Below are positions 16,792 to 63,853 of a stretch of 64,000 bases of DNA, one piece after another. The stretch is taken from assembly GCA_016177575.1 (NCBI GenBank), contig JACOVA010000030.1, positions 6,054 through 70,053 on the forward strand, written 5' to 3'. Below the pieces are notes generated by a model that was not told the origin of the DNA, did not search any database, and was given only the letters and a program-made list of their open reading frames with translations. This DNA comes from Betaproteobacteria bacterium (GTDB lineage: Bacteria; Pseudomonadota; Gammaproteobacteria; Burkholderiales; SG8-39). The position numbers and the translations under genes are program-made. Within the stretch, counting starts at the first letter, position 1. Every line of letters begins with the position of its first letter.

Positions 16792-16801
16792 GGCCCTCGC
16801 G

Positions 16802-18031: not shown

Positions 18032-18037
18032 GCCGCA

Positions 18038-19725: not shown

Positions 19726-19735
19726 CGCCCCGACG

Positions 19736-24370: not shown

Positions 24371-24380
24371 CCCGCCGCGG

Positions 24381-26770: not shown

Positions 26771-26805
26771 CCCAGGGAAAAACCTCCGAGTCGGTATGAT
26801 GAGCC

Positions 26806-28503: not shown

Positions 28504-29542
28504 CGATCCCGGCGCCGGGCTTGCGCTTCCCGAGGCCGCGCTCGCGCGCTAGAACTCCGAATTGTCCCCAGTCGTACGCCCAACTGAGGCCGGCGAGCAG
28601 CCGGAAGTCCCCCACTCGGCGCAGCTTCGCCGCGAGCCGCCTGCGCTCGCGGATCTGTTGCCGATGCGCAATCGCCCAGCCGTAAGAGCGCCATTTCGCG
28701 CCGCGGAATCCGTGGCGTCGCATGATGGCGTAACCCCAGGCGAGCAGCTCCGTGAAAATCAGCACCGGCAGCAGCGCCAGCAGCGTGCCGGGCCTGAGAT
28801 AAGCCATGAGCATGGCGATGCGATTCCTCTCGAGAAGGTGGAACTTGTCGGCGTGCATCGAAAGGAAATAATCGTGACGTACGCGCGAGGCCGGCACGCA
28901 ACACAGCTCGTATCCGGCGAGTCGCAGCAACCACGAGCTGTTCACGTCTTCGTGATAGAGGAAGCCGGTCGCGTCGAAGCCGCCGACCCGTTCGTAGGTC
29001 GAGCGTTTCATGGCGAAGAACGCGCCGTGGATTCCGTCCACCGCGAACATTCGATTGCCGAATTTTCCGGCTGGCTCGCCCAGGCCGTGGTTGAAGCCGA
29101 GGCCCGTAACGTGGATCCTTTGCCCTGCGGCGTTGACCGACAGGCCATCCATCAGCAGCAGCAGGGGGTTGACGGCCGCGACCTGTGGATTCTCCCGCAG
29201 CGCGCTCGCCAGCGGTTCGAGCCATCCAGGCTCCGGGACAGTGTCCATATTGGCGAAGACCAGGAGCCCGCCGCTCGACGCGTCGGCCCCCTGATTCAAG
29301 CCCGCCGCGTAGCCGACGTTGACGGCGTTGCGAATGACGCGAATCCGGGAGGCGAGCGGAGACGGAATCTCAGCGCTGCCGTCGCTCGACGCGTTGTCAA
29401 CCACGACGATCTCGGCCTCGGCGGCAGTCGCGAGCATGGCTTGCAGGCATCTGCGCAGCTTCTCGCCGCCGTTGAAGTTGACGACGATGATCGAAACCCC
29501 GCCGCGCGTTGCAGCTGGCAGCGCGCTGGCCGGGCTTAGCAC
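28493..29542 (-). CDS. Glycosyltransferase family 2
   Basis: VSIIVVNFNGGEKLRRCL...VVVDNASSDGS and the DxD region FANMDTV. Confidence 0.85.
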   Translation of the reverse strand: MLSPASALPAATRGGVSIIVVNFNGGEKLRRCLQAMLATAAEAEIVVVDNASSDGSAEIPSPLASRIRVIRNAVNVGYAAGLNQGADASSGGLLVFANMDTVPEPGWLEPLASALRENPQVAAVNPLLLLMDGLSVNAAGQRIHVTGLGFNHGLGEPAGKFGNRMFAVDGIHGAFFAMKRSTYERVGGFDATGFLYHEDVNSSWLLRLAGYELCCVPASRVRHDYFLSMHADKFHLLERNRIAMLMAYLRPGTLLALLPVLIFTELLAWGYAIMRRHGFRGAKWRSYGWAIAHRQQIRERRRLAAKLRRVGDFRLLAGLSWAYDWGQFGVLARERGLGKRKPGAGIVSS

Positions 29543-40000: not shown

Positions 40001-40846
40001 GCGGGGATTGGTGTGGTAGCAGGTGACCTCGAATCGGCCACGGTCGTGCCGCGCCAGTATCGGCTCCATGAACCGCATCACGACGTGCTCGCGGAAATCC
40101 GGCGACAGGTAGCCGAGGCGAAGCCTGCGCGGCCACGCCGGATCCGGCGCCGGCGCTTCGTAGCGCCGCGCGAAGCGCGCCCCGAAGCGCTGGTGCTCCG
40201 CGAAAATCGCCGCGGCATCCTCGTTGCAGCTGTAGTTCAGCTCGAGCAGGAGGTTGCTGTGGGTCGGCGCGTGGTCGGGCACCAATGCCAGGGCGCGCCG
40301 GTAGGTGGCGATGGCCTCGTCGGTCCTGCCGAATTCGCGATAGATGCCGGCGAGGTTGAAATGGACTTCCGGCACGTTCGGCAGAAGCGCCTGCAGCCGC
40401 TCCAGCTCGGGGAGCGCCTCCGGCCTGCGATTGAGCTCGATCAACGCTACCGCGTAGTTGTTGCGCAGCCTCGTGCAATCGGGTTGCAGGCCGAGGCAGA
40501 CACGATAGACCTCGATGGCTTCTTCAAAGCGGCGCGCATCGAGGAGCGCGGCGCCGAGCTCGAGCTGGTACAACGCCTCTCCGGGTCGCAGATCCACCGC
40601 CTGCTGAAAAAGCGCGATCGCCTCCTGCTGCCTGCGGTCGCGCACCGCCATGCGGCCGAGGAAATAGAGCGCGTCGGTGTGCGCCGGATCGCTCTCGAGC
40701 ACGCGGCGGTACAGGCGATCGGCGCCCGCGGGATCTCCCCTGCACTCGCATTCATAACCCGCGCGCAGCCACTCTTCCGGTCCTTCGGGCCCGGCAGCGC
40801 GCGCAGGCGACGGCTCGGCGCGAAGCACCCGCTTCAACCAGTTCAT
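37037..40846 (-). CDS. Tandem (TPR-GT41)x2 protein, 1269 aa
   Basis: Two colinear copies of a TPR array plus GT41-like core. Module 1 has LGYLSPDFREH..., LQATYLGYPNTTGLGAVDYRITD and FPYNGATTTCEALWMGVPVVSL. Module 2 has IGYVSPDFARR..., VQATWLGYPDTTGLDAIDYRLTD and FPYAGMSATCEALWMGVPVVTL. Confidence 0.85.
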   Translation of the reverse strand: MNWLKRVLRAEPSPARAAGPEGPEEWLRAGYECECRGDPAGADRLYRRVLESDPAHTDALYFLGRMAVRDRRQQEAIALFQQAVDLRPGEALYQLELGAALLDARRFEEAIEVYRVCLGLQPDCTRLRNNYAVALIELNRRPEALPELERLQALLPNVPEVHFNLAGIYREFGRTDEAIATYRRALALVPDHAPTHSNLLLELNYSCNEDAAAIFAEHQRFGARFARRYEAPAPDPAWPRRLRLGYLSPDFREHVVMRFMEPILARHDRGRFEVTCYHTNPRRDAVTGRLRALAEHWVDADDLSERELAERIRADRIDILVDLAGHTAGNSMPVLAMKPASLQATYLGYPNTTGLGAVDYRITDAWADPPGEADRYTAERLVRLPRSYFCYRPEPDSPAVASLPALSKGTVTFGCFNNFAKLSAPFLDAAARTLAQVPGSRLILKGRPLSVESVADSVRGRFRHAGIDPARVELRGWEAGVKDHLAIYNSVDIALDSFPYNGATTTCEALWMGVPVVSLAGDRHAARMGASLLHAMGLEQYLTHEVDAYIATSVRLAGNIEHLAELRRGLRERMRSSPLLDEQGFARVLERCYLELWETRKRSEAVPGATGEESDNELIGQARRLRAAGRLAEARARCEKILAGTPAHPDALTLQWDLAFDGDAPGAAIDWINRAIAADPRVAAFHYMLGCALQAVGRTEDAIASFRRALELDDSQAKTHNNLGCALEAAGNLAAAVDCYRGAIGRDPAMAQALYNLGNVYGQLGDTKQAIDYVSRALAIETRHADWRCNLGSLRYRELQLDEAIADFRAAIEIAPGYERAHADLGGALLVAGRVEEARAAWAKALELDPGLADVESRSLLALHFREGEDAQLLLDRHVSWRDRHARGLLRATAHRLRDTGPGRRLNIGYVSPDFARRPLAAFIEPVLAAHDRAAFQVFCYATGGQEDEVTRRLRGMCAHWRDISRFANEQAADQVRADGIDILVDLAGHAAGGRLLLFARRPAPVQATWLGYPDTTGLDAIDYRLTDPVADPRGESERFHAEKLLRLPASFLCYQPEPDCLEAGEVPQSRSGHVTFGSFNELAAMTPHMIALWAQILLAQPQARLVLGSYGLSAASARRDMGAQLLAHGIAEQRFDLHVPDFSPAGRLAAYREIDIALDVFPYAGMSATCEALWMGVPVVTLAGRTCASRTGASILSSIGLAELVATTPEQYAAIVLRLAGQLDERRALRAGMRERMRASPLLDAARFTRALEDAYREMGEKRLRAPA

Positions 40847-40903
40847 TGCATCGCCCCGACGGCTGGTAACATTGAAATCGAGGACGTCAACCAGAGGTCA
40901 GAC

Positions 40904-41197
40904 ATGTCCAAAGGGCCAGGCTCCCGCGACGTGGCGGATTTTGCCACCGAACTGGTGCTGGAGTTTTCCAAGCGCTGCCCGCCCGAGCTCGCCGAGCGCT
41001 CGACGATGGCCGTCGCGCGCGCGATTGACGAAATCTGCAACCGCGCGGCGGCGCTTCAGCGCGAGCAGCACCTCGGCATCTACGGCAGGGCGAAGTTCGG
41101 CACCGAGTTCAAGCTCCGGCTCAAGGACGCCGGATACGTGCCGGAGTTCGTGGACGAGCTTACCACCAAGCTGCTGATCAGCATGTCGGGAAAATAG
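40904..41197 (+). CDS. Hypothetical 97-aa protein
   Basis: This is the only plausible part of the long antisense ORF 38255..41197. ATG at 40904 with AGAGG 8 nt upstream. Native codon bias, non-low-complexity sequence, and 18 nt upstream of the FkbM gene. No motif recognised. Confidence 0.45.
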   Translation: MSKGPGSRDVADFATELVLEFSKRCPPELAERSTMAVARAIDEICNRAAALQREQHLGIYGRAKFGTEFKLRLKDAGYVPEFVDELTTKLLISMSGK

Positions 41198-41215
41198 CCG
41201 TCCCAGCAGTCCTGA

Positions 41216-42097
41216 ATGAATTCCGACAAGCTCCACCGCGTCGGGCCGTTCGAGCTGATCCTGCCGCCCGATCACATGCTCGACCGGTATCAGAAGCAAT
41301 ATCACCTCTACGACTGGGTCCTCGGCGAGCTCGCCGTCCTGCTGCTGGCAAAATATCCGGACGCGGCGGCGATCGATATCGGCGCCAACGTCGGCGACAC
41401 GGCTGCGGTACTCTGCCGCAAGCAGGAAATCCCGGTGCTGTGCGTCGAGGGCCATCCGCATTTTGTCGCCTACCTGCGCCGCAATCTGGCGCGCCTTCCC
41501 GCCTGCATCGAATTCGCCGAATGCCTGGTGGGCGCTCGCTCCGGCTCGATATCGGCGGCGAGCTTCATCGCCGACCACGGCACCGCCGCTATCGACAGCG
41601 CCGCCGGCGGGCGCGAAAACGATCGGCGCATTCCGGTGCGCCCTCTTGCCGATATCCTTCGCGAGCACCCTCGCTTCCAGCGCTCGCGGCTGCTGAAGAC
41701 CGATACCGACGGCTCCGATTTCGAGATCCTGGGATCGTCGCTCGACGCGTTGCGCGATACCCACCCGGTGCTTTTCTTCGAGTACGACCCGACCCTGCGC
41801 CCGGACGGTGCGAAAGCCGCAGCCGACACGATCTCCGGGCTAGTGCAGGCGGGCTACGGGCGCTTCCTGCTGCATGACAACTACGGCCACTTTGCCGGCA
41901 GCATCGACGCGGACTGCAGGGAGAAATTCCTCTCCCTCGATCGCTACCTGTTCTCGAACCTCTATTTCGGCAGGCGCATCTACTACTACGATGTCTGCGC
42001 GTTCTGCCCGGCCGACTTCGACCTGTGCGGCGAGCTGGAGACCACGCACCGTCTTCTGATCGAGGCGGCGTTGCGCGAGGACGGCAGAGTTTTCTAA
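41216..42097 (+). CDS. FkbM-family methyltransferase
   Basis: AIDIGANVGDTAAV and LLKTDTDGSDFEIL motifs typical of the FkbM family. Confidence 0.85.
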   Translation: MNSDKLHRVGPFELILPPDHMLDRYQKQYHLYDWVLGELAVLLLAKYPDAAAIDIGANVGDTAAVLCRKQEIPVLCVEGHPHFVAYLRRNLARLPACIEFAECLVGARSGSISAASFIADHGTAAIDSAAGGRENDRRIPVRPLADILREHPRFQRSRLLKTDTDGSDFEILGSSLDALRDTHPVLFFEYDPTLRPDGAKAAADTISGLVQAGYGRFLLHDNYGHFAGSIDADCREKFLSLDRYLFSNLYFGRRIYYYDVCAFCPADFDLCGELETTHRLLIEAALREDGRVF

Positions 42098-42103
42098 CCG
42101 CGC

Positions 42104-50618: not shown

Positions 50619-52994
50619 TCACTTGATGCAGACCGAGCGCACTTCCTTGATGTTGGTGACGCCCGAGAGGCACTTCTCCATGCCGTCCTGCTTCAGGGTG
50701 CGCATACCCTCCTCCAGCGCCACCGCGAGCATCTCGGCCACGCGCGCCTTCTCGGCGATCAGCTTCTTGAGCGGGTCGGTGGCGATCAGCAGCTCGTGCA
50801 GGCCGCAGCGGCCCTTCATGCCGCTGCCGCCGCATTTGTCGCAGCCGACGGGCTTGTAGAACGTCAGCTGGCCCTTTTCGTTGCCGTAGGTCTTCACCCA
50901 GTCGCGATAGACGTTTTCCATCGCCGACTTGGGGTCTTTCTTGAAGGTCGAGGTGTTCTGCAGTTCGTCGCAGTACTCCTGCAGGAACGCTTTGATTTCC
51001 GCCCCTTCCGGGTTGTACGCCTGCTTGCAGCTGCACATGCGCCGCGCCAGGCGCTGCGCCAGGATGCCGAGCAGCGCGTCGGAGAAGTTGAACGGGTCCA
51101 TGCCCATGTCGAGCAGGCGGATGATCGACTCCGGCGCCGAGTTGGTGTGCAGCGTCGCGAACACCAGGTGGCCGGTGAGCGAGGCTTCGATGCCGGTGCC
51201 GGTGGTCTCCTTGTCGCGCATCTCGCCGACCATGATGATGTCCGGGTCGGCGCGCAGGAAAGCCTTCATCACCGCCGCGAAATCCAGGCCCGCCTTCTTG
51301 TTCACCTGCACCTGGCGCAGGCCCTTCTGCGTGATTTCGACCGGGTCTTCCGCGGTCCAGATCTTGGTGTCGGGCGTGTTCAGGTACTTGAGCACGGAGT
51401 GCAGTGTCGTCGTCTTGCCCGAGCCGGTCGGGCCGCAGACGAAGAACAGGCCGTAGGGCTTGCCGACCGCTTTCTGCAGCTCGTCGAGGTTGTGGGCCGT
51501 AAACCCCATCTTCTCGAGCGGGATCGGCTCGCCCGCGGCGAGGATCCGCATCACCACGTCTTCCACCCCGCCGGCGGTAGGGATGGTGGCGACCCGCAGC
51601 TCGATGTCCAGGGGCCCGAATTTCTTGAATTTGATCTTGCCGTCCTGGGGCTTTCTCTTCTCCGAGATATCCAGGTCGCACATGATCTTGAGGCGGGCGG
51701 CGAGCGCGTTGCGGTAGCTCGCCGGCACCTCGATGTAGGGCTGCAGGTTGCCGTCGCGCCGGAAGCGGATCTCGGTCTTGGCCTTGCCGGGATAGGGCTC
51801 GATGTGGATATCCGACACGCCCTGGTTGTAGGCGTCGATGATGATCTTGTTGACCAGCTTCACCAGCTCGTTGTCCGCGGCCGCCGAGACGTCGTCGGCC
51901 ACCGAGCCTTCCATCGCCTCGCCGCCGCCCTCCTCGTCGCCGAGGGTCGCCAGCATGTCGCCGATGTCGCCGCTATCGACCGCCTCCTGGCCGTAGAACT
52001 GGTTGACCGTTTCCTTGAACTCCTTCTGCGTCGTCACCTTGTACAGCAGGCGGGACTTGGGGAACACGTTCGATGCAATGCGCGAGCTGCGGATGCGCTC
52101 CGGGTCGAGGCACAGGACCGAGAGCCCTTCCTTCGCCTCGTCGATCGGCAACCAGTGGTTTCCCTCCACGTACTCGCGCTTGAGGTTCTTCAGCAGATCC
52201 ATCGGCTTGACGCGATCGGCCTTGAACGGCTCGTAGGGCACGCCGAAGAATTTCGACAGCGCCGCGCCGATGGCGGGAATCTTGACCTGGAACTCGTCGG
52301 TGAGCACCGCCTCGATATCGATCGCCTTCTTGCGCGCCTGGCGCGAGGCGAGCTCGAACTCGCCCGCCGACAGCACCGCGTCGGAAATCAGGTAGTCGTA
52401 TTTCGTCTTGACGAGCTGCGGCTTCTGCCGCTGCTTGAATGCGATCGCCAGGGTCTGCGCGAGCTCGTTGACGCCCTCCTCGGTGAGCGGGCCGAAAGGC
52501 GAGCCGGCCTTGTTGTTGATGATCTGGATCACGCCGATCAGCTCGGCGCCCCCCTGCTCGACGATCGGCGCGACCAGCTGCTGCTTGGTGCGGTAGCCGG
52601 TGCGCTTGTCGACCTCCTGCAGGAAGCGCAGGTTCGGATTGATCGCCTTCAGCTCGGCCTCGTCGTAGACGTCCTTGATGTTGGTCAGCTTGCGCGACAT
52701 CGCGACGTAGCCCGCGATCGAATGCTCCGCGATCGGCAGCTTGAGGTCCTTGAAGGAGTTGAGGCCGGTCTTGACCTTGGAGACGATCGACTGCTTGTCC
52801 TCGCCGACCGAATAGATCGTCAGCCGATCGGCGTTGAACAGCTGGCAGATGTCCGAGCTCACCTCCAGCATGATCTCGTCGATGTTGCTGGTGGCGTGGA
52901 TCTTGTTCGTCACCAGCTGCAGCTGCTTCTGGAACGCGAGCCGGATATTGACGTCCGTCTGCGTCGCTGCTGGATGGCTGAGTACCGCGCTCAT
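50619..52994 (-). CDS. GAF-fused GspE/PilB-family secretion ATPase (791 aa)
   Basis: N-terminal GAF (LTIYSVGEDKQSIVSK...GVIQIINNK). A T2SS-E N-domain-like segment. Walker A CGPTGSGKTTTL, Walker B IMVGEMRD, His box GHLVFATLHTN, and a Cys4 cluster CSCK...CDKCGGSG. Confidence 0.9.
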   Translation of the reverse strand: MSAVLSHPAATQTDVNIRLAFQKQLQLVTNKIHATSNIDEIMLEVSSDICQLFNADRLTIYSVGEDKQSIVSKVKTGLNSFKDLKLPIAEHSIAGYVAMSRKLTNIKDVYDEAELKAINPNLRFLQEVDKRTGYRTKQQLVAPIVEQGGAELIGVIQIINNKAGSPFGPLTEEGVNELAQTLAIAFKQRQKPQLVKTKYDYLISDAVLSAGEFELASRQARKKAIDIEAVLTDEFQVKIPAIGAALSKFFGVPYEPFKADRVKPMDLLKNLKREYVEGNHWLPIDEAKEGLSVLCLDPERIRSSRIASNVFPKSRLLYKVTTQKEFKETVNQFYGQEAVDSGDIGDMLATLGDEEGGGEAMEGSVADDVSAAADNELVKLVNKIIIDAYNQGVSDIHIEPYPGKAKTEIRFRRDGNLQPYIEVPASYRNALAARLKIMCDLDISEKRKPQDGKIKFKKFGPLDIELRVATIPTAGGVEDVVMRILAAGEPIPLEKMGFTAHNLDELQKAVGKPYGLFFVCGPTGSGKTTTLHSVLKYLNTPDTKIWTAEDPVEITQKGLRQVQVNKKAGLDFAAVMKAFLRADPDIIMVGEMRDKETTGTGIEASLTGHLVFATLHTNSAPESIIRLLDMGMDPFNFSDALLGILAQRLARRMCSCKQAYNPEGAEIKAFLQEYCDELQNTSTFKKDPKSAMENVYRDWVKTYGNEKGQLTFYKPVGCDKCGGSGMKGRCGLHELLIATDPLKKLIAEKARVAEMLAVALEEGMRTLKQDGMEKCLSGVTNIKEVRSVCIK

Positions 52995-53107: not shown

Positions 53108-54193
53108 TCAGCGGCCGCGGCCGGCGGCCCACAGGCCGCCGGCGAGCAGACACACCTTGAAGCCGCGCTGGGCGAACAGAAAGGCGGCCGCGGAGCTGCG
53201 CCGCCCGCTCTGGCAGTAGACGATGTACTCGCGCCCCGGCTCGAGCACCGCGAAGCTGTTGCGCACCTCGTTGAGCGGGACATTGATCGCGCCGGGCAGC
53301 TTGTCGTAGCGGTATTCCGAGGGGTAGCGCACGTCGAGCCAGGTCGCGCCGCGCTGCACGCGCTCGAGTCCCTCCTCGTAGCCGACGCGCTGCAGGAGCG
53401 GCTCGCCGAGGAGCTCGTTGAAGTCGCGCTTGCCCAGGCGCAGCAGCTGGCCGTCGCTCGCCATGCTCACGGTCGCGTTGCGCTTGGCCTCGGAAGCGAG
53501 CGCCTCCTCGCCGAACGCGTCCCCGCTCTTCAGCTCGGCGAGGGCGACCTTGACGCCGCCGACCATGCGCTCGACATGGCAGCGTCCGGACTCGATCACA
53601 TAGTAGTAGTCGCCCTCCTCGCCTTCGCGGATCACGACATCGCCGCGGTGCGCGGCGACGCGCTCGAAGCGCGCCAGCAGCTCTTCGATGCGCGCCGCCG
53701 GCAGCCGCGCGAACACGCCATGACGCAGGTTGGAGAGGGAGAACACGCCGCGGCCGAGGCGTGCGTCGGAGCGCACCGCGCGCCCCATCACGCTGCCCGC
53801 GGCGGCGTCGCCCGCGGCAACCTGGTCGAACGTGACCAGGATGTCGAGCACTTCGTCGTCCAGCGTCAGAAGATCGAGGTCGCTGATCGCCCGCGCACGC
53901 GCGATCGGGGCGCCGCGCCGGTTGAGCGGAAAGCGGCCGTCGCCGGTCCCCCCCACCACGACCAGCGTGCCGCCGCCGGCGTACATGAGCAGAATCTCGC
54001 CGCGCAGCAGGAACACCGATAGCCCGTCGAGCTTGCGTCCGGAGAGCGGATCGCGGCCGCGCGCCGTGCTTTCCACCAGCGCGACCTCCGCCAGCTCGCG
54101 CAGCCGCTCGGCCGAAAGCGCGCCCAGCGGCGCGAACACGGAGAGCTGCTCGACGGTGGCGCGCTGCGGCAATGCCCGTGGCGTCGTGTCCAC
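53108..54193 (-). CDS. Tandem cyclic-nucleotide-binding domains fused to a rhodanese domain
   Basis: The second CNB domain has GDAFGEEALASEAKRNATV; the first is more degenerate. The C-terminal rhodanese has the active-site loop YCQSGRRS. Confidence 0.8.
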   Translation of the reverse strand: MDTTPRALPQRATVEQLSVFAPLGALSAERLRELAEVALVESTARGRDPLSGRKLDGLSVFLLRGEILLMYAGGGTLVVVGGTGDGRFPLNRRGAPIARARAISDLDLLTLDDEVLDILVTFDQVAAGDAAAGSVMGRAVRSDARLGRGVFSLSNLRHGVFARLPAARIEELLARFERVAAHRGDVVIREGEEGDYYYVIESGRCHVERMVGGVKVALAELKSGDAFGEEALASEAKRNATVSMASDGQLLRLGKRDFNELLGEPLLQRVGYEEGLERVQRGATWLDVRYPSEYRYDKLPGAINVPLNEVRNSFAVLEPGREYIVYCQSGRRSSAAAFLFAQRGFKVCLLAGGLWAAGRGR

Positions 54194-54196
54194 GGC

Positions 54197-54964
54197 TCAG
54201 AACTCGAACGTCTGCCCGTTCTGCAGCATGCGCGGCCGGCGGCTGGCCGAGCATTCCTCGACCTCCTGCATCGTCAGCTCGATCTCCCCGGGCTTGAGGT
54301 GCGTGATCCAGATCTCGGGATCGCGCTCGAGCTTGGCCAGCTCGTCGGCGAGCATCGAGGGGCACAGGTGCTTGGACACTTCCGCCAGCTGGCGCTCCTT
54401 GTTCGAGAAAGCGGTCTCGATGATCAGCACGCGCAGGTTCTCGATCTGATTCACGATGTGCCACAGCTCGTCGTTCGGCCCGGTGTCGCCGGAAAAGACC
54501 AGGCTGCCCGTGCCGCTGCGAAGGTGGTAGCCGACCGCAGGCACGGTATGGATCGCCGGCAGCGGCGTGAAATCGCGCCCGCCCAGCGTCACCGTCCTGC
54601 CGAGCTCGATTTCCTGGTAACGCAGGAACGGCGCCTCCGCGCTCGGGATCTCGGTGAAGTCCGGCCAGATCGCCCAGTTGAACAGATGGTTCTTCAGGAT
54701 CTCGATGGTCGCGCCGGTCGCGTGGACGGTGATCGGCCGGGCGCGCATGCCGCCGACCGTGTCGACGAGAAACGGGATCGAGGTGACATGGTCGAGATGC
54801 GAGTGCGTGACGAAGATATGGTCGATCTGGGTCAGCTCGGCGAGCGACAGGTCGCCGACCCCCGAACCGGCATCGATCAGCACGTCGCTGTCGACGAGAA
54901 AGGAGGTGGTGCGCAGATGGCGCCCGCCGATACCCCCGGAGCAGCCCAGGACGCGCAGGCGCAT
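54197..54964 (-). CDS. Class II 3',5'-cyclic-nucleotide phosphodiesterase (MBL fold)
   Basis: Start at ATG 54964 (MRLRVLGCSGG). Metal motif FVTHSHLDHV. Size is ~255 aa. Confidence 0.8.
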   Translation of the reverse strand: MRLRVLGCSGGIGGRHLRTTSFLVDSDVLIDAGSGVGDLSLAELTQIDHIFVTHSHLDHVTSIPFLVDTVGGMRARPITVHATGATIEILKNHLFNWAIWPDFTEIPSAEAPFLRYQEIELGRTVTLGGRDFTPLPAIHTVPAVGYHLRSGTGSLVFSGDTGPNDELWHIVNQIENLRVLIIETAFSNKERQLAEVSKHLCPSMLADELAKLERDPEIWITHLKPGEIELTMQEVEECSASRRPRMLQNGQTFEF

Positions 54965-54972
54965 CGCCGGGC

Positions 54973-57198
54973 CTATTTCTCGTGAAACACGGTAACGCCG
55001 TCCCAGTCGTCCGGCAGCGCGGCATCCCGCATGGTGTCGACTCTCTCGGCATACGCCTGATACAGCCCGCACTCCGGGTTCATGCCTTGCAGCTTGGCGA
55101 GGCCGGCCTCGGCCTCGTCCCAGCGTTGCGCGCGGTATGCGGCGAGCGCGTCGTCCCAGAGATCGAGCTCGTTGCGCGCCCCCTGGTCCACTTCGGACTC
55201 CAGACCGAGCGGCTCGTAGATCGCGATCGCCTCGTCCTTGCCCTTGACCTTGATGCGGTCGATTTCCCTGAACAGCACGTCCTTGACCGCGGCGCGGGTC
55301 GCCTCGCCGACCAGGATGCCGATGCCGTAGGTCTTGGTGCGACCCTCGAGGCGCGAGGCAACGTTCACCGGATCTCCCATCACCGTATAGGCGCGCCGCA
55401 CCTGGGAGCCCATGTCGCCTACACGCACGCCGCCGGTGTTGACGCCCACCCCGATCTTGAGCGCCGGCCAGCCGCGTGCGGTGAACTTGTCATTCAGCAC
55501 CTTGCACTCCCCTTGCATCTCCAGCGCGGCGAGCACGCCGTTGCGCGCATGCTGCGGATCCTCGACCGGAGCCCCCCAAAACGCCATGATCGCGTCGCCG
55601 ATGTACTTGTCAAGAGTCCCGTTGTACCTGGCGCGGATGATGCCGCTCATCGTGGTCAGGTACTGGTTGATGTACTCGCGCAGCTCCTCGGGCTTGAGCG
55701 CCTCGGAGATGCTGGTGAAGCCGCGCACGTCCGAGAACAGGATCGTCAACTCGGCGGCCTTGGGCTCCATGGTGTACTTCTCCGGGTCGGCCGCCATCCG
55801 GTCGACCAGCTCGGGCGGAACGTATTGCCCGAAGAGCTCGGTGAACTGACGCTTCGAGCGGCTCTCGACGAAGTAGCCGTAGGCCATGTTCACCGTGTAC
55901 ATGGCGCCTACCATCAGGATCGAGGTCGCGAGCGGCAGCACCAGATCCGCCATGGACCAGACCATGAAATCGATTGCCGTCACCAGCGCGACGCCGAGGA
56001 GCACGCTGGCGGTCGCCCACAGCGCCGACAGCATGGGAATCAGGATCGAGAGCGCCACGCCGCCGACCAGCAGCAGGAGCACCTCGGCACCGAGCATGTA
56101 CGGCGGCTTGCTCTTGAGGGTCCCGTCGAGGACGCCGGTGATCATGTTGGCGTGGATCTCGACGCCGGGATAGACGCTGCCGACGGGCGTCGAGCGCTGA
56201 TCGAGCAATCCCGGGGCGGTGGTGCCGACGATCGCGATCCTCCCCTTCAGCTGGCCGGGATCGACGCGGTCTTTCAGGACGTCGGCGAGCGCGATGTAGG
56301 GATAGCTGAACTTGCGGCCGCGATAGGGGATCAGCACCGCCGCCCGCTCGTCCACCGGAATGACATAGTCGGCGACCTTCAGCCATTCCAGGCCAGGGTA
56401 ATCGAATGAGGGCGGTACGAGGCCGGGCTCGACCCTGGGGGCAGCGCCAGTCTGCAGCGCGATCAGAGCGCGCAGCATCGCGAGGGAGAGCGCTTCGTAA
56501 TATTCTCCCTCGAATTCCAGGATCATCGGCACGCGGCGCGACACGCCGTCGTCGTCGACCAGCGGGTTGAAATGGCCTGCCCCCGCCGCGTTCTTCACGT
56601 ATTCGGACAGGTTTCCGGTATAGCCCTTCCAGCGCGGGAAGTTGATCGCCCGTCCGGCGAAGGTCTCCCTGGAAAGCACGGGCGGTGGAATGGCATTCGC
56701 CTTGACCGCGTTTTCCTCGGCGTTGAAGTAATAGCCGAGCACCACGGGGCGATCCTTGATGCTCGCCGCGAACATGCCGTCGAAATCGAGCTGCGGGCGT
56801 AGCCGCTTGAAGGCCGACTGGAACCCGGACACCTCCTTCAGCTCCTGACGCGCGAGCGCCTCGAGCGTGTCCATGCCCGAGCTGGTATCCCGCTCCGCCC
56901 ATACCACGTCGAAACCGACCAGCAGCACGCCGTACTTGCCGAACAGCTTGTCCATCAGCTGCGCCATGACGTTGCGGCTCCAGGGCCAGCGTCCGACCTC
57001 GCCCAGGCTCTTCTCGTCGATGTCCAGAATGACGACGCGCGGATCGACGCCTCCCGGCATCGTCATGTTCAGCCGCGCGTCGAAGATGATGTTGTCGAGC
57101 TGGGTGATCAGCCCGATCTCGTACCAGCGCAGGGTATGGCCCAGGAAGAAGAAGACGATCGCCAGGCCGATCACGATCCTGACGAGGTGCTGTTTCAC
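54973..57198 (-). CDS. CHASE2 sensor / class III nucleotidyl cyclase (probably adenylate cyclase)
   Basis: N-terminal TM followed by CHASE2 (VVILDIDEKSLGEVGRWPWSRN), then TM helices. The cyclase core has ILFSDVRGFTSISE, KYIGDAIMAFWG and GDPVNVASRLEG. The Lys in DKYIGD is the adenine-type specificity residue. Confidence 0.9.
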   Translation of the reverse strand: MKQHLVRIVIGLAIVFFFLGHTLRWYEIGLITQLDNIIFDARLNMTMPGGVDPRVVILDIDEKSLGEVGRWPWSRNVMAQLMDKLFGKYGVLLVGFDVVWAERDTSSGMDTLEALARQELKEVSGFQSAFKRLRPQLDFDGMFAASIKDRPVVLGYYFNAEENAVKANAIPPPVLSRETFAGRAINFPRWKGYTGNLSEYVKNAAGAGHFNPLVDDDGVSRRVPMILEFEGEYYEALSLAMLRALIALQTGAAPRVEPGLVPPSFDYPGLEWLKVADYVIPVDERAAVLIPYRGRKFSYPYIALADVLKDRVDPGQLKGRIAIVGTTAPGLLDQRSTPVGSVYPGVEIHANMITGVLDGTLKSKPPYMLGAEVLLLLVGGVALSILIPMLSALWATASVLLGVALVTAIDFMVWSMADLVLPLATSILMVGAMYTVNMAYGYFVESRSKRQFTELFGQYVPPELVDRMAADPEKYTMEPKAAELTILFSDVRGFTSISEALKPEELREYINQYLTTMSGIIRARYNGTLDKYIGDAIMAFWGAPVEDPQHARNGVLAALEMQGECKVLNDKFTARGWPALKIGVGVNTGGVRVGDMGSQVRRAYTVMGDPVNVASRLEGRTKTYGIGILVGEATRAAVKDVLFREIDRIKVKGKDEAIAIYEPLGLESEVDQGARNELDLWDDALAAYRAQRWDEAEAGLAKLQGMNPECGLYQAYAERVDTMRDAALPDDWDGVTVFHEK

Positions 57199-57242: not shown

Positions 57243-58097
57243 TCAGGACTTGTGGAAGAACTCCATCTTGATGCCGGCGATCTCGACCAGATCGTGGTCC
57301 TTGAGGGGATGCGGCGCGGCGCCGATCGGCTGGCCGTTGACGGTCGGGCGCTGGGCGCCTTCGACGTGGGTGATGAAGTAGCCCTGCGGGCGCCGCGTCA
57401 GCACCGCGACCTGCACGCCCGGCTTGCCGAGCGTGGTGAGTGGCTTGGAGAGCTCCAGCTCCTTGCCGGCGTTGCCACCCGAAAGCAGCTGTATGGCGCC
57501 GAGGGGCTGGGCGGGCTTGGGCGCGGCCGGCGCGGCGGCGGCCGGCGCGGGCGCGGCCGGCGCGGGCGCGGCCGGTGCGGGCGCGGCGGCCGGCGCGGTT
57601 GCCGGCGCCGGCCTTTCCGCGATGCCGCTCACCTGGGCGGCGGCACCCACCGCCTGGATTGCCGCCTGGCGCGCCGCCTGGGCGGCCTGCGCCGCCTGCG
57701 CGCCGCCCATCGGCATGGTCCGCGCTTGCTCGGCGGCGGCCTTCATCGCCGAGGGCCGCAGCACCATCGTCTTCTCGAAGTCGGCCGCAGCCGCCGCGGG
57801 CTGGGCGCCGGCTTCCTGGATGAACTTCAGCTTGTACTTGCCGAGCTCGATGATGTCGTTGTTCTGCAGGAAGTGCTTCTTGACCGGGTTGCCGTTCACC
57901 AACGTGCCGTTGGTGCTGCCCAGATCCTCCATGAAGGAATCGTTCAGGATGGTGACGATCACGGCGTGCTCGCCGCTCACCGCCAGATTGTCGATCTGGA
58001 TGTCGTTGTGCGCCTTGCGGCCGATGGTCGTGCGCTCCTTGGAGAGCGGAATCTCCTTGAGCACTAGGCCGTCCATGCTGAGTATCAGTTTCGCCAT
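57243..58097 (-). CDS. Double FHA-domain protein with an Ala/Pro-rich linker
   Basis: N-terminal FHA TIGRKAHNDIQIDNLAVSGEHA...GSTNGTLVNG. The C-terminal divergent FHA-like domain is TTLGKPGVQVAV...PTVNGQPI. The linker is APAPAAPAPAAPAPAAAAPAAP. Confidence 0.85.
   Translation of the reverse strand: MAKLILSMDGLVLKEIPLSKERTTIGRKAHNDIQIDNLAVSGEHAVIVTILNDSFMEDLGSTNGTLVNGNPVKKHFLQNNDIIELGKYKLKFIQEAGAQPAAAAADFEKTMVLRPSAMKAAAEQARTMPMGGAQAAQAAQAARQAAIQAVGAAAQVSGIAERPAPATAPAAAPAPAAPAPAAPAPAAAAPAAPKPAQPLGAIQLLSGGNAGKELELSKPLTTLGKPGVQVAVLTRRPQGYFITHVEGAQRPTVNGQPIGAAPHPLKDHDLVEIAGIKMEFFHKS
57541..57585. repeat. Three tandem copies of a 15-bp unit inside the FHA-protein linker
   Basis: GCCGGCGCGGGCGCG at 57541-57555 and 57556-57570. 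GCCGGTGCGGGCGCG at 57571-57585. The repeat is in-frame and encodes the Ala/Pro repeats. Confidence 0.8.
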
Positions 58098-58112: not shown

Positions 58113-58925
58113 TTATTTAAACCAGCCCAAAAAGCCGCGAGGGGCGGGGTATTCGCGCAGGACGCGCACGAGTATAACCGATACGTTGTCCTTGCCCCCG
58201 TTGTCGTTGGCCATCTGCACCAGCTGCTGGGCGGCGAGCTTGAGGTTGCCGCCGAGCGCCTGCAGCGTCATCCCCATGTCCTCGTCCTCGACCATGTCGC
58301 ACAGGCCGTCGGAGCAAAGCAGGTAGACGTCCCCCGGCCGGGTTGCGTACTCGCGCACCTCGGGCTCGACCGACGGATCGATGCCGAGCGCCTTGGTGAC
58401 CAGGTTCTTGTGCTGCGCGTGCTTCGCCTGTTCGGCGGTGATGATGCCGCTGTCGATCTGCTCCTGGAGCAGCGAATGGTCGCGCGTCACCTGCGAAAAT
58501 TTTCCGTCACGCAGCATGTAGAGCCGCGAATCGCCCAGGTGCCCGACCATCATCTTGTTGTCGTAGAACAGGCAGACGACCAGGGTCGTGCCCATTCCCG
58601 CGTACTGGGGCTGGCTCTGCGCCGCCTGGTAGATCGAGGTGTTCGCCTTCAGCACCTGCTCGCGGATCATGCGCTCGGCGAGCGTCTTCTTGGTCTCCTG
58701 GTCGACCTGGTAGGGCTGCGCCCTGGCGAGCAGCTGCTGCAGCTCGGTGGTGATCACCGTGGTCGCCATCCCGCTCGCGACTTCGCCGGCGTTGTAGCCG
58801 CCCATGCCATCGGCGAGCACCACCAGACCGTTGGCCGGGTCCGAGGCGATCGAGTCCTCGTTGTGCGAGCGCACCATGCCCGGATCGGTGCAGCTCGCGA
58901 TTTCGAGCACCTGGCTGTAGTTCAT
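58113..58925 (-). CDS. PP2C-family Ser/Thr protein phosphatase
   Basis: SCTDPGMVRSHNEDS, VLADGMGGYNAGEVAS, LCSDGL and NGGKDNVSVILV motifs. Confidence 0.9.
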   Translation of the reverse strand: MNYSQVLEIASCTDPGMVRSHNEDSIASDPANGLVVLADGMGGYNAGEVASGMATTVITTELQQLLARAQPYQVDQETKKTLAERMIREQVLKANTSIYQAAQSQPQYAGMGTTLVVCLFYDNKMMVGHLGDSRLYMLRDGKFSQVTRDHSLLQEQIDSGIITAEQAKHAQHKNLVTKALGIDPSVEPEVREYATRPGDVYLLCSDGLCDMVEDEDMGMTLQALGGNLKLAAQQLVQMANDNGGKDNVSVILVRVLREYPAPRGFLGWFK

Positions 58926-59165
58926 GCGTTACCGAGCTTCCTCATGCAGCTGTTCGAGCGCTCCGAGATCTTGCGCATTCCAAGCGGGCGGGCGCAAAAA
59001 TTCTACGCCAGCCCCGCACCTGGCACGCGGATTCGAGACCTATCCTTCCCCCAAGGAAAGCAGCTTCCCCGGGGCGCATTTTTGCAGCTAAGTGTCTGCT
59101 ACGTCAAATATTTGCGCGCGCTGGGGCGGTGCGCCGCGCGTCCGGTCCGGCGGGTCTTGCAGGCG

Positions 59166-60098
59166 TCAGCTGCCGAGCAGTTGCCCGGCCTTGATGCTGC
59201 CCGCGCCGGTAAGCTCGCCCGCGGCGACCTTCTTGCCCTCGCCGAGCTTGGCGCGCAGCACCTCGATGCGGCCGCCCTGCGTGGTCACCTGGAAACTCGC
59301 GGCGCCGGCCTCGACGACCTCGCCGATCTTTCCCTTCACGGCGCCGAAGCTGCGCACCGGATGCTTCCTGCAGTCGAAGATCTGCAGCTTCGTCCCGTTC
59401 AGCGTGGTCCAGGCGCCCGGCGCGGGATTGCTGCCCCGGATCAGGTTGTAGACGACGTCGACGTGGTTCGCCCAATTGACGCGCGCCTCGGCGTCGCGGA
59501 ACCAGCCTTCGTAGCTCGCCAGCGATTCGTCCTGCGCCAGCTCGCGCTGCCTTCCGGAGACGACCATGTCCGCGGCCTCGAGCATGGCCTGCACGCCCAT
59601 CGGAAAGAGGCGGTCGAAATACAACGTCCCGAGCGTGTCGTCGGGGCCGATGCGGGTCTCCTTCTGCAGCACCACCGGGCCCTCGTCCAGGCCGTCGGTG
59701 GGGCGGAAGATGGTCAGCCCGGTTTTCGTGTCGCCGCGGGTAATCGGCCAGTTGATCGAGCTCGGGCCGCGGTATTTCGGCAGCAGCGACGGGTGGTACT
59801 GGATGGTGCCGTGCTTCGGGATGCCGACGAAATCCTGCGGCGCGAACTGCAGCACGAAAGCCATGATGCCGAGCTCTGCGCCCAGATCGCGCATCGCCTT
59901 TTTCGCGTCATCGCTCTTCAGGGAAGCAAACTGAAAAACCTTGATCCCCTTCTCCTGCGCCGCAAGCTTGAGCGCATCGGGCCGCGCGCCCGGCTTCTCC
60001 GGCGCGCAGAACACCCCCGCCACCTCGTCGCCGCGCGCGAGGAAAGCCTCGAGCACGGCCTTGCCGAAATCCTGCTGCCCTACGATCGCGACCCTCAT
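59166..60098 (-). CDS. Formyltransferase-family protein (Fmt-like N- and C-domains)
   Basis: The ATG shares 1 nt with the frc stop (TGATGA). MRVAIVGQQDFG, and HPSLLPKYRGPSSINWPI, which matches the formyltransferase HxSLLPxxRG motif. It also has a C-terminal Fmt-like beta-barrel domain. Confidence 0.8.
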   Translation of the reverse strand: MRVAIVGQQDFGKAVLEAFLARGDEVAGVFCAPEKPGARPDALKLAAQEKGIKVFQFASLKSDDAKKAMRDLGAELGIMAFVLQFAPQDFVGIPKHGTIQYHPSLLPKYRGPSSINWPITRGDTKTGLTIFRPTDGLDEGPVVLQKETRIGPDDTLGTLYFDRLFPMGVQAMLEAADMVVSGRQRELAQDESLASYEGWFRDAEARVNWANHVDVVYNLIRGSNPAPGAWTTLNGTKLQIFDCRKHPVRSFGAVKGKIGEVVEAGAASFQVTTQGGRIEVLRAKLGEGKKVAAGELTGAGSIKAGQLLGS

Positions 60099-63143: not shown

Positions 63144-63241
63144 GCGGGACTCCCTCGGAAATGGTCGAAAATGATAGTAAGCGCCACCCGCAGGCGACCT
63201 TGACTGCGGTCAAGCTTTTTCAGTCTAATCAACGGCTCCGC

Positions 63242-63853
63242 ATGACCGCCATCGCCAATCACCCACAGCGCAACACGATTCGCATGCAGCTGCGCCAGAA
63301 CCTGCTCCTGCGCGACCTGCAGGCGGGGCAATGGGAGGCGCTGGAGCCCCTGCTGGCGGTGGTCGAGTACCGCAAGGGCGATCCGCTGGTGCGCCAGGGC
63401 GACGAGGAGATGGAGCAGATCTTCATCCTCGAGGGAATGGTCAAGCGCGTGGTCTCGAACCCCGAGGGGCACGAGATGATCCTGCGCTTCGCCGCCGAGA
63501 CGGAGATGGATACGTCGTACGCGGCGTGGCGCCTGCGCACGCCGACGCCCTACTCGATCGTCGCCGTGACCAAGGTGCGCGTGGCCGAGCTGCCGATGCC
63601 GCTGTGGGCCGAGTTCCTCGAGCGCTACCCCGAGATCAAATCGCGCTTCGAGTACGACCTGATGAAGCTGATGTCGGAGGTAATGGCGCATACCATCACG
63701 CTGCACCTGCTCGACGCCCCGGGGCGGCTGTCGCGCTTTCACCGCAAGCACCCGGACCTCGCCGCGCGCATCCCGAAGAAGGAGCTCGCCGCCTACCTCA
63801 ACCTGACGCCCGAGACGCTCTCGCGCCTGAAGCAGAAGCTCGGCCGGGCCTAG
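63242..63853 (+). CDS. Crp/Fnr-family transcriptional regulator
   Basis: I chose the start at ATG 63242. An N-terminal cNMP-binding-like beta-barrel (GDPLVRQGDEEMEQIFILEGMVK). A C-terminal HTH KKELAAYLNLTPETLSRLKQKL. It is divergent from oxc. Confidence 0.8.
   Translation: MTAIANHPQRNTIRMQLRQNLLLRDLQAGQWEALEPLLAVVEYRKGDPLVRQGDEEMEQIFILEGMVKRVVSNPEGHEMILRFAAETEMDTSYAAWRLRTPTPYSIVAVTKVRVAELPMPLWAEFLERYPEIKSRFEYDLMKLMSEVMAHTITLHLLDAPGRLSRFHRKHPDLAARIPKKELAAYLNLTPETLSRLKQKLGRA

Follow-up and report, generated by a model that had tools for sequence, protein, structure and literature searches.

A GAF-fused PilB/GspE-type ATPase in a conserved cyclic-nucleotide signalling operon of Betaproteobacteria, a candidate cAMP-gated motor for type IVa pili

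The 64-kb stretch of DNA that was analysed (the window) encodes, on its reverse strand, a 791-residue ATPase of the PilB/GspE type with an N-terminal GAF domain. The gene lies in a co-directional operon comprised of PP2C, FHA, CHASE2-adenylate cyclase, MBL, cNMP-binding/rhodanese, ATPase and GAF-HD-GYP genes, and a pilin gene is found 8 kb downstream of the ATPase. The features are as follows.

58113..58925, minus strand: PP2C Ser/Thr phosphatase, Stp1/IreP family (Pfam PP2C)
57243..58097, minus strand: FHA-domain protein (Pfam FHA 1.3e-21)
54973..57198, minus strand: CHASE2 - class III nucleotide cyclase with adenylate-cyclase signature (Pfam CHASE2 and Guanylate_cyc)
54197..54964, minus strand: MBL-fold hydrolase of 255 aa, predicted 3',5'-cyclic-nucleotide phosphodiesterase (Pfam Lactamase_B_2 and PDEase_II 2.3e-12)
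53108..54193, minus strand: cNMP-binding and rhodanese protein (Pfam cNMP_binding 2.4e-17, Rhodanese 4.4e-14)
50619..52994, minus strand: GAF-MshEN-like-T2SSE ATPase, 791 aa (ORF and Pfam domains)
52440..52883, minus strand: GAF domain of the ATPase (aa 38-185), cNMP-binding type by sequence and fold (PDB search, AF2/Foldseek)
51981..52403, minus strand: MshEN-like N-terminal domain in the ATPase (aa 198-338), its c-di-GMP motif degenerate (Pfam MshEN 250-338)
50640..51878, minus strand: N2, hexameric ATPase core and putative Zn-Cys4 C-terminal domain of the ATPase (aa 373-785; T2SSE)
48914..50599, minus strand: GAF-HD-GYP protein, predicted c-di-GMP phosphodiesterase (Pfam GAF and HD_5/HD)
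42853..48818, no single strand given: TPR / GT41 / GT1 glycosyltransferase genes between the HD-GYP and pilin genes (Pfam Glyco_transf_41, TPR, Glycos_transf_1)
42171..42602, minus strand: PilA-like major pilin of type IVa, probably the subunit of the substrate filament (Pfam Pilin and N_methyl)
42113..42144, minus strand: intrinsic-terminator-like hairpin 3' of the pilin gene (12-bp stem, 8 GC pairs, T-run)

Pfam assigns three domains to the ATPase, GAF at residues 38-185 (E 5e-8, 33.9 bits against a cutoff of 22.4), MshEN at 250-338 (E 1.7e-7, 31.6 bits against 23.1) and T2SSE at 373-785 (E 5e-112, 374.7 bits against 24.9). The Asp box, Walker A (GPTGSGKTTT, 521-530), Walker B (IMVGEMRD, 587-594) and the His box (ATLHTN, 613-618) show no change in 78/78 orthologues. 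The four-cysteine cluster, C654-x-C656...C718-x2-C721, is kept in 77-78 of the 78 and is atypical in that its first half reads CxC and its spacer is ∼61 residues long; the tetracysteine C-terminal subdomain is of a putative Zn-binding type. By these features the protein belongs to the GspE/PilB/PilT secretion ATPase superfamily, and the best explanation of its sequence is a hexameric ATPase of the PilB family, predicted to be catalytically competent, with a rewired regulatory N terminus. The protein is 100% identical to a 'GspE/PulE family protein' in NCBI from a Betaproteobacteria MAG. The GC3 of its gene (0.93) resembles that of the adjoining genes, in a region with a GC content of 0.65, and the composition is therefore native.

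Much of the initial annotation of this DNA is borne out by these data, namely a 791-aa ORF with a GAF domain, a T2SS-E N-terminal-type segment and a full motor core, as well as native codon usage. It had also stated that PilC/GspF, PilD, PilMNOPQ and secretin genes are absent from the 64 kb, and Pfam scans of ∼50 ORFs, with some small ORFs outside the scan, likewise revealed no T2SSF/PilC, PilD peptidase, PilMNOPQ or secretin in the window. The initial annotation overlooked the pilin gene and the dense signalling operon.

In sequence and in modelled fold, the GAF domain is nearest to the cAMP/cGMP-binding GAF domains. The best PDB sequence match is CyaB2 (1YKD, E 5e-28), and the matches after it include PDE10A, 4MCW and PDE2A/5/6, with E values of 2e-10 for 2ZMF, 7e-9 for 1MC0 and 1e-7 to 1e-5 for PDE5/6; bilin-binding and other non-cNMP GAFs gave E > 0.1, save for one histidine-kinase GAF at 9e-5. 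The AF2 model of the ATPase has a pLDDT of 81 overall and 85-93 across the GAF, and the top Foldseek matches were 4MCW, 1YKD, PDE2A/5A/10A/6 and Lcd1-cAMP, with a probability of 1.00 to GAF structures, in agreement with the N-terminal GAF fold first proposed. Residues D129xxTGYRT136, N160 and F167 are unchanged in 78/78 orthologues, and TGYRT is common to CyaB2 GAF-A, GAF-B and 4MCW. Across the wide family, conservation is highest at the residues of the GAF pocket, which argues for the GAF being a functional sensor. In the NKFDE motif, N160 and F167 are accompanied by E172 in 63/78 orthologues and by K/R162, one position late, in 72/78; at the position of the aspartate (D171) the target has T, the betaproteobacterial clade A/V/T and the consensus of the wider family D. 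In PDE2 and PDE5, altering these residues abolishes or strongly lowers cGMP binding (PMC11977230), and the isolated CyaB2 GAFb binds cAMP and cGMP alike (PMC4411481). Compared with the GAFs of CyaB2 and PDE2-5-6-10-11, its best sequence and fold matches, the ATPase keeps TGYRT and the N...F...E positions and differs in having a single rather than a tandem GAF, a secretion-type ATPase as output and a partly kept NKFDE motif. The choice between cAMP and cGMP is beyond what the sequence can decide.

c-di-GMP is known to tune PilB-family motors, by a direct route that uses MshEN or by way of PilZ/FimX adaptors. The MshEN-like domain of the ATPase is closest to the N-domains of M. xanthus and Geobacter PilB, with the best alignment to M. 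xanthus PilB, and its AF2 model retains four N-terminal helices and the α/β subdomain. The domain is without a c-di-GMP-binding motif: K198-Y199-D200 stands where RLG is expected, and neither the strict nor the relaxed MshEN pattern (from PMC5013675) was found in the target or in any of 105 family members. M. xanthus PilB, the positive control, fits the relaxed pattern. Furthermore, the structure of the MshE N-domain (5HTL) was not retrieved by the N-domain of the ATPase at E <= 10. On the motif tests and this search, c-di-GMP input through the MshEN domain, a route that the initial annotation had raised, was rejected as unsupported. MshE / PA14_29490 (V. cholerae, 5HTL; PMC5013675) embodies the same concept, an N-terminal second-messenger input to a PilB/GspE-family motor; the ATPase differs in that the 2 x 24-residue RLGxx..LxxxLxxQ motif is missing, with KYD for RLG, and in carrying a cAMP/cGMP-type GAF sensor instead.

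The HD-GYP gene begins 19 bp downstream of the ATPase. Its translation shows HDCGK and GGHHERMDGKGYP, with the motif HHERMDGKGYP readable in agreement with HHExxDGxGYP, and HD_5 scores 146 bits, so that an enzyme is predicted; an insertion of ∼80 aa separates the HD and GYP halves. The GAF of this protein and that of the ATPase both carry DKxTGYR[TS]K. The architecture of the HD-GYP protein, with HD and GYP motifs intact, is that of Tlr0485 and PmGH, and the GAF of the ATPase is structurally closest to that of PmGH; Tlr0485, PmGH and Lcd1 are analogues of the ATPase or of its neighbor and are different proteins from it.

Upstream of the ATPase, the MBL-fold hydrolase is predicted to be a phosphodiesterase also by the NCBI name of an identical protein. 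Foldseek matches of its model were ELAC/YhfI, RNase Z, yeast PDE1 and Apyc1, placing the enzyme no nearer to PDE than to RNase Z-type hydrolases, and no NCBIfam equivalog or curated PDE model scored above its own cutoff. The mechanical ORF of this gene runs on to 55072. The PP2C protein scores 252.5 bits with NCBIfam NF033484, over the cutoff of 230. Class III adenylate cyclases have Lys and Asp/Thr as substrate-specifying residues, and guanylate cyclases have Glu and Cys/Gly. The best PDB match of the operon cyclase is P. aeruginosa CyaB (3R5G, 1e-34), and its signature comprises the Lys in GTLDKYIGD and the Thr in RAYTVMGD. In an alignment with 3R5G and 2W01, the E of Cya2 is matched by K in the operon cyclase and the G of Cya2 by T, at positions which we take to be the substrate-specifying sites.

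The downstream pilin is a classical T4a pilin, with the leader present and a C-terminal Cys pair. The hairpin 3' of its gene is a doubtful terminator, because such sites are no commoner than in shuffles; the counts from promoter and terminator scans of the region were not above those of shuffles. The glycosyltransferase genes that precede the pilin gene are possibly a pilin glycosylation island, an uncertain association; in other loci the pilin gene comes immediately after the HD-GYP gene, with no glycosyltransferase genes between them.

The cAMP/c-di-GMP/phospho-Thr signalling cluster around the ATPase recurs in 80 betaproteobacterial genomes. MBL is the most constant neighbor (72 of the 80 loci), followed by HD-GYP (71), cyclase (60) and PP2C (58); an FHA gene (family f5) was found in 45 loci and the cNMP-binding/rhodanese gene in 36/80. 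Counted over loci of sufficient length, a prepilin gene lies downstream of the ATPase in 30/56 and upstream in 0/57, so that about half have no pilin near the ATPase. Among the 30 downstream genes, 28 are on the same strand and 24 are directly after HD-GYP. Glycosylation-type genes come after this recurrent neighbor, a PF00114 T4a pilin. The context thins out in some relatives: Nitrosomonas loci contain only Usp-MBL-ATPase, with no cyclase and with HD-GYP missing in 4/5, distant members sit among housekeeping genes and one is a complete orphan. A GAF/MshEN-like protein lacking the ATPase (P0121) also adjoins cyclase genes. The family is common in Betaproteobacteria of environmental importance, among them Burkholderiales of soil and groundwater, the iron oxidisers Gallionella and Sideroxydans, the ammonia oxidiser Nitrosomonas, and Rhodocyclaceae. 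The GAF + MshEN + T2SSE architecture is already in databases under the name "GspE/PulE family protein", catalogued in >120 near-identical database clusters, while clustering at 50% identity gives 278; it is uncharacterised and is not rare. The initial annotation had regarded the fusion as an uncharacterised architecture, which holds insofar as a literature search, with subscription journals outside it, found no paper characterising the GAF-PilB/GspE fusion or the cluster, and the survey speaks against rarity.

Taken together, these data suggest, with confidence that we would place midway between doubt and conviction, that the protein is a cAMP-gated motor of the PilB family that drives a type IVa pilus machine with genes at another site, and that it is probably paralogous to the canonical PilB. 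Ahead of an MshEN-like domain devoid of the c-di-GMP motif, a cAMP/cGMP-type GAF would have been added. The CHASE2 adenylate cyclase encoded upstream would convert an extracytoplasmic cue into cAMP, which the MBL-fold phosphodiesterase would clear. Binding of cAMP to the GAF of the ATPase may alter the activity of the motor or the way it engages the pilus platform and, in parallel, cAMP on the GAF of the HD-GYP protein may activate the hydrolysis of c-di-GMP, as it does in Tlr0485. The precedents are the cAMP-activated GAF-HD-GYP protein Tlr0485 and the cAMP-GAF-GGDEF protein Lcd1 (PMC8846402; bioRxiv 10.1101/2021.11.05.467447). The output would be a type IVa pilus polymerised from the pilin encoded downstream, with PilC/PilD/PilMNOPQ supplied from elsewhere. 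The earlier proposal of a ligand-gated assembly ATPase for a machine encoded elsewhere thus survives in part, in keeping with the cNMP-type GAF, the intact motor and the lack of a nearby platform or secretin gene both in the window and in the 80 loci; its alternatives of a T2SS or a co-opted motor are disfavoured by the genomic context, which favours type IV pili because the conserved cluster usually ends in a major pilin gene.

A canonical pilB gene adjoins pilC and pilD. The ATPase resembles PilB (M. xanthus 3JC8, Geobacter 5TSG, Thermus PilF 5OIU) in its N2 and ATPase core motifs, its Zn-Cys4 cluster, its MshEN-type N-domain and the nearby major pilin gene, and differs in the extra N-terminal GAF, the lost c-di-GMP motif, the CxC first pair and the long spacer. 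In the PDB sequence search the core scored 344 bits with Thermus PilF, 332 with Mx PilB and 316 with Geobacter PilB, the PilF/PilB entries spanning 344-313 bits, and 305 with Vibrio GspE, below PilF/PilB. The top NCBIfam model was PilB (TIGR02538), with 475.4 bits against a cutoff of 675.65 in two stretches ending at profile position 471/564; GspE (TIGR02533) scored 440.1 bits, also below its cutoff (630.25). It is conceivable, though we think it unlikely, that the ATPase is simply the sole type IVa extension ATPase of the organism, a canonical PilB to which the GAF adds no more than minor modulation or dimerisation and whose pilC/pilD/pilMNOPQ genes lie elsewhere. Such a role would fit the PilB model as top hit, the PilF/PilB neighbors in the PDB, the alignment of the N-domain with M. 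xanthus PilB, the frequent downstream major pilin gene and the finding of no second PilB-like gene in any fetched locus, each covering ∼20 kb. However, the score is 200 bits short of the PilB equivalog cutoff, the C-terminal domain is divergent and the conserved GAF pocket points to a functional sensor. Moreover, pilC/pilD adjacency occurs in 0/80 loci, unlike the contiguous canonical pilBCD of Comamonas (PMC10781756), and several PilB paralogues are possible in Betaproteobacteria, Ramlibacter having three with one T4P machine (PMC3164672). No PilC/PilD-like family was found among the recurrent neighbors of the 80 loci, as judged by size and reading of representatives rather than by Pfam scan. 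Two families of fitting size (f18 and f41) read, again without a Pfam scan, as GT1 and GT2 glycosyltransferases, and two others (f17 and f26) as proteins of the membrane/TPR and O-antigen-ligase-like kinds. Because of the score below the PilB cutoff, the missing pilC/pilD neighbors and the Comamonas and Ramlibacter precedents, we infer that, in all likelihood, an accessory PilB paralogue is encoded here and not the housekeeping PilB.

The GAF of the ATPase could bind another ligand or none and act as a dimerisation or protein-interaction module, with the cyclase and phosphodiesterase working only via the cNMP-binding protein and HD-GYP. The incomplete NKFDE motif, with its shifted K and its D replaced by T/A/V, is consistent with this arrangement, as are the absence of a cyclase from the Nitrosomonas loci and the fact that PmGH (4MCW), the closest GAF by structure, has no known ligand (bioRxiv 10.1101/2021.11.05.467447). 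It appears improbable to us, given the match to cAMP-bound CyaB2 at E 5e-28, the higher ranking of cNMP-binding PDE GAFs over other GAF classes, the unchanged TGYRT, the persistent linkage of cyclase and PDE genes to the ATPase and the adjacency of cyclase genes even to the ATPase-less P0121.

The tightest partners of the ATPase are signalling enzymes and not pilus parts, and its distant members are orphaned among housekeeping genes, as might be expected of a motor co-opted for non-filament signalling or remodelling inside the kinase/PP2C/FHA/cyclase module, for example a phospho-Thr/FHA-regulated hexamer controlling the cyclase or HD-GYP; PADLOC matches of the cyclase and the cNMP-binding domain to PycC/PycTIR similarly raise a Pycsar-like defence cluster. 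Both are very unlikely. The motor motifs are all unchanged, as is the Zn cluster typical of filament-assembly ATPases, and the pilin association is directional, downstream only. The PADLOC matches reflect generic domain homology, PADLOC and Pfam revealed no TIR or TM effector in the cluster, where the cNMP protein bears a rhodanese domain instead, and the context is stable and chromosomal across families with native composition, unlike that of defence islands; a Pycsar or other defence system was thus rejected. Least probable of all is that the ATPase powers a T2SS, MSHA-like or other non-T4a filament, for although GspE scores only slightly under PilB (440 vs 475 and 305 vs 316-344 bits) and databases list the ATPase as a GspE/PulE family protein, pseudopilin, GspF, GspD and msh genes were found neither in the window nor in the 80 loci, and the recurrent neighbor is the T4a pilin followed by glycosylation-type genes.

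The cAMP-gated type IVa motor can be extended, more tentatively, to a dedicated second T4a extension motor, switched by cAMP through the fused GAF after c-di-GMP sensing was abandoned, and present within a self-contained operon in many Betaproteobacteria and in distant lineages. This operon would couple the CHASE2 sensor, a Ser/Thr kinase, the PP2C and FHA phospho-relay and cAMP turnover to pilin polymerisation, and would also feed cAMP-activated c-di-GMP hydrolysis into it. cAMP controls type IV pili via CyaB-Vfr in Pseudomonas and Cya1-SyCRP1 in cyanobacteria, in both cases transcriptionally through CRP-family regulators, and to our knowledge cAMP control of pili is known solely at the level of transcription. 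The operon would resemble the Pseudomonas CyaB-Vfr system in leading from class III cyclase cAMP to type IV pili, its cyclase being most similar to CyaB; a sensor fused to the motor itself would imply post-translational control, in contrast to the CRP route. If correct, the model would describe a post-translational cAMP-to-pilus pathway separate from the Vfr/CRP route, which is transcriptional. It would also provide the first ATPase of the secretion superfamily gated by a cyclic mononucleotide. A cAMP-type sensor next to a degenerate c-di-GMP site would show the regulatory N terminus of these ATPases to be a swappable input module, and the family would offer a direct biochemical handle on how a small ligand controls hexamer activity or platform engagement. 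The compact, conserved operon lends itself to studying how cAMP, c-di-GMP and Ser/Thr phosphorylation interact. In the groups that carry it, biofilm formation and the colonisation of minerals are influenced by twitching and attachment to surfaces.

The 791-residue ATPase contains three Pfam domains, GAF (38-185), MshEN (250-338) and T2SSE (373-785, E 5e-112), matching the GAF domain and T2SS-E N-terminal-type segment recognized in the initial annotation. Every motor motif quoted there is present; across an alignment of 78 orthologues the Walker A, Asp box, Walker B and His box never vary, and the cysteines C654-x-C656 ... C718-x2-C721 are kept in 77-78 of the 78. The GC3 of the gene (0.93) and the regional GC (0.65) are the same as for its neighbours, in line with the native composition proposed for it, and Pfam scans of ~50 ORFs across the 64-kb window found no PilC/GspF, PilD, PilMNOPQ or secretin, as had also been reported. 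As the ORF, domains, motifs, composition and missing partners all checked out, that first observation is confirmed. It overlooked a textbook type IVa major pilin gene in the window and a dense signalling operon enclosing the ATPase gene.

Genes of the cluster around the ATPase in the window (coordinates, strand, product)
58113-58925, -, PP2C phosphatase (Pfam; passes the Stp1/IreP cutoff)
57243-58097, -, FHA protein (Pfam)
54973-57198, -, CHASE2-class III cyclase (Pfam)
54197-54964, -, MBL-fold hydrolase (PDEase_II match)
53108-54193, -, cNMP-binding + rhodanese protein (Pfam)
50619-52994, -, ATPase, 791 aa (Pfam GAF, MshEN and T2SSE)
48914-50599, -, GAF-HD-GYP protein (Pfam; HD and GYP motifs intact)
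42171-42602, -, type IVa major pilin (leader; C-terminal Cys pair)

The genes from PP2C to GAF-HD-GYP share one strand with small intergenic gaps, and are followed by TPR/GT41/GT1 glycosyltransferase genes and then the pilin gene.

By sequence, the ATPase GAF is closest to that of cAMP-bound Anabaena CyaB2 (E 5e-28), followed by PDE10A, the GAF-HD-GYP protein PmGH, PDE2A, PDE5 and PDE6, with GAFs for other ligands scoring far lower than the cNMP type. An AlphaFold model of residues 1-372 (mean pLDDT 81; 85-93 in the GAF) retrieved the same proteins with Foldseek, and also the cAMP-bound structure of Lcd1, a diguanylate cyclase activated by cAMP (PMC8846402; bioRxiv 10.1101/2021.11.05.467447), and the N terminus is thus a GAF fold, as proposed. 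All 78 orthologues share D129xxTGYRT136, N160 and F167 without exception, conservation in the wide family peaks at GAF positions, and a DKxTGYR[TS]K pocket segment is common to the GAFs of the ATPase and the neighbouring HD-GYP protein. Of NKFDE, the diagnostic motif of cNMP-binding GAFs (PMC4411481, PMC11977230), the N, F and E are kept, the K is shifted by one position, and the D position is occupied by T in the ATPase and A/V/T across the clade. Because the motif is only partly retained, membership of the cNMP-binding subfamily is likely, not proven; that the GAF binds another ligand or none is rather improbable, given the distance from other-ligand GAFs.

The MshEN-like segment aligns best with the N-domains of Myxococcus xanthus and Geobacter PilB, and the MshE N-domain structure gave no match to it even at E <= 10. 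Neither the strict c-di-GMP motif nor the relaxed version with which its authors searched (PMC5013675) occurs in the ATPase or in any of the 105 family members tested, whereas a PilB control matches; the suggested c-di-GMP input through this segment is therefore not upheld. K-Y-D replaces R-L-G. The motif is lost, yet the segment is well conserved (mean identity 0.74) and its helices are retained in the model; consequently, its retention reflects a function different from canonical c-di-GMP binding.

The cyclase domain is closest to Pseudomonas aeruginosa CyaB (E 1e-34) and carries Lys for Glu and Thr for Gly relative to the guanylate cyclase Cya2, which we take to be the adenylate-cyclase signature among class III cyclases. 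The MBL protein is named 3',5'-cyclic-nucleotide phosphodiesterase by NCBI, and its model (pLDDT 85.5) groups with small ELAC/YhfI/RNase Z-like phosphodiesterases, its matches including yeast PDE1 (query TM-score 0.80) and Apyc1; the protein stays below the cutoff of every curated NCBIfam model, so this assignment stays a prediction. An ~80-residue insertion (aa ~331-408; Pfam HD_5 242-330 and 409-525) interrupts the HD-GYP domain and resembles the GAF-associated HD-GYP insertion of Leptospira LIC_11189 (PMC12943098). A Crp-like protein (63161-63853, +; cNMP_binding and a weak HTH_Crp_2 match), ~4 kb past the cluster, could relay the same cAMP signal to transcription.

An NCBI entry named "GspE/PulE family protein", from a Betaproteobacteria MAG, matches the ATPase at 100% identity, and the same three domains occur in >120 database clusters at 90-96% identity. 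Scanning species-representative genomes yielded at least 598 confirmed stretches, of which the best 80 loci were analysed; these cover residues 1-791 throughout at 66-91% identity and come from Burkholderiales MAGs, Gallionella, Sideroxydans, Nitrosomonas, Sulfuritalea, Methyloversatilis, Noviherbaspirillum, Chitinimonas viridis and Parachitinimonas caeni. Tblastn and ORF clustering gave the order [CHASE2-Ser/Thr kinase] - PP2C - FHA - CHASE2-cyclase - MBL - [cNMP-binding/rhodanese] - ATPase - GAF-HD-GYP - pilin(s), with MBL in 72/80 of these best loci, HD-GYP in 71/80, cyclase in 60/80, PP2C in 58/80 and cNMP-binding/rhodanese in 36/80. Among loci long enough to score, a prepilin gene lies within 8 kb downstream in 30 of 56 (28 on the same strand, 24 immediately after HD-GYP) and upstream in none of 57. 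The N-terminal GAF+MshEN half matched 278 clusters at 50% identity (E <= 1e-30), reaching beyond the clade, and 23 of 27 diverse full-length representatives of the wider family combine GAF with T2SSE.

Several loci depart from this arrangement. In most related loci PP2C-FHA is immediately preceded by a gene for a CHASE2 + Ser/Thr protein kinase of ~850 aa (e.g. L032:2624-5143); this gene is missing upstream of 58925 in the window and from L004, L005, L013, L019 and L022 of the same sub-lineage, leaving PP2C and FHA there without a cognate kinase in the cluster. In the Nitrosomonas/Nitrosomonadaceae loci L063, L066, L069, L071 and L074 the cluster is cut to TerC-like, Usp, MBL and ATPase genes, without cyclase, kinase, PP2C or FHA; HD-GYP and pilin are missing from four of the five and both kept in L063. 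The MBL-ATPase pair is the irreducible core of the cluster. The cyclase, HD-GYP and MBL block is inverted and divergent from the ATPase in L050, L053 and L068 (Noviherbaspirillum and relatives), its linkage surviving the rearrangement. At L082:10001-13012 and L083:7129-10140, a 1003-residue protein of repeated GAF + MshEN-like units without an ATPase domain, adjoining genes for class III cyclases and an ankyrin-repeat protein, may represent the sensor module in stand-alone form. Two ORFs divergent from PP2C (59092-59451 and 59566-59934, +; 119 and 122 aa) have no Pfam match and recur at 50-80% identity in 10 related loci.

Between HD-GYP and pilin, the window holds a TPR/GT41 (O-GlcNAc-transferase-like), GT1 and FkbM-methyltransferase island (37037-48818). 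Related loci place the pilin directly after HD-GYP and, behind it, a gene whose product, judged by reading sequences, resembles an O-antigen-ligase-like or membrane+TPR protein, which suggests variable pilin glycosylation cassettes. A polysaccharide locus at 15925-29542 (O-antigen-type Wzm/Wzt ABC transporter with WbsX, GT2, methyltransferase and asparagine-synthase-like genes) may supply glycan to the GT41/pilin region.

PilF/PilB (344-313 bits) match the ATPase core slightly better than GspE (~305 bits) does; NCBIfam gives 475 bits for PilB and 440 for GspE, both well under the equivalog cutoffs. That it is simply the sole ordinary PilB is unlikely, even with no second PilB-like ATPase in any of the loci, each of ~20 kb. 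The canonical pilB of betaproteobacteria adjoins pilC and pilD, as in Comamonas (PMC10781756), and Ramlibacter has three PilB paralogues for one pilus machine (PMC3164672). Neither pilC nor pilD occurs among the ~50 ORFs of the window scanned with Pfam or among recurring neighbour families of the best 80 loci by sequence reading, where families of PilC-/PilD-like size resemble glycosyltransferases. The sub-cutoff scores, Comamonas contiguity, Ramlibacter paralogues and pilC/pilD absence make an accessory paralogue the likelier reading. A role as a non-filament signalling motor is improbable, although one distant family member is a true orphan amid housekeeping genes, and so is a defence role for the cluster, as the PADLOC matches are generic domain homology. 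Service to a T2SS or other filament is also improbable: the GspE scores are nearly equal, but the gene recurring downstream is a pilin.

The preferred reading is a PilB-family motor with an exchanged second-messenger input module. The gene and domain anatomy, its conservation, the motif loss and the cyclase signature are demonstrated here; the ligand, the sign of regulation and the output are inferred. In the proposed mechanism, the CHASE2 sensor-cyclase would make cAMP and the MBL enzyme remove it; cAMP bound by the ATPase GAF would gate ATPase activity or docking to a PilC/PilM platform encoded elsewhere, and in parallel activate HD-GYP, lowering c-di-GMP. The output filament would be the type IVa pilus of the downstream pilin, and the kinase/PP2C/FHA module, incomplete in the window, probably adds a phospho-threonine input. 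Databases already catalogue the GAF-MshEN-T2SSE combination under a generic name, and a search of the freely accessible literature found no paper describing or testing it, in keeping with the view that this fusion is uncharacterised. The family is real, abundant and mechanistically suggestive, with a function that we infer throughout, and its cultured carriers, Chitinimonas and Parachitinimonas, make it directly testable.
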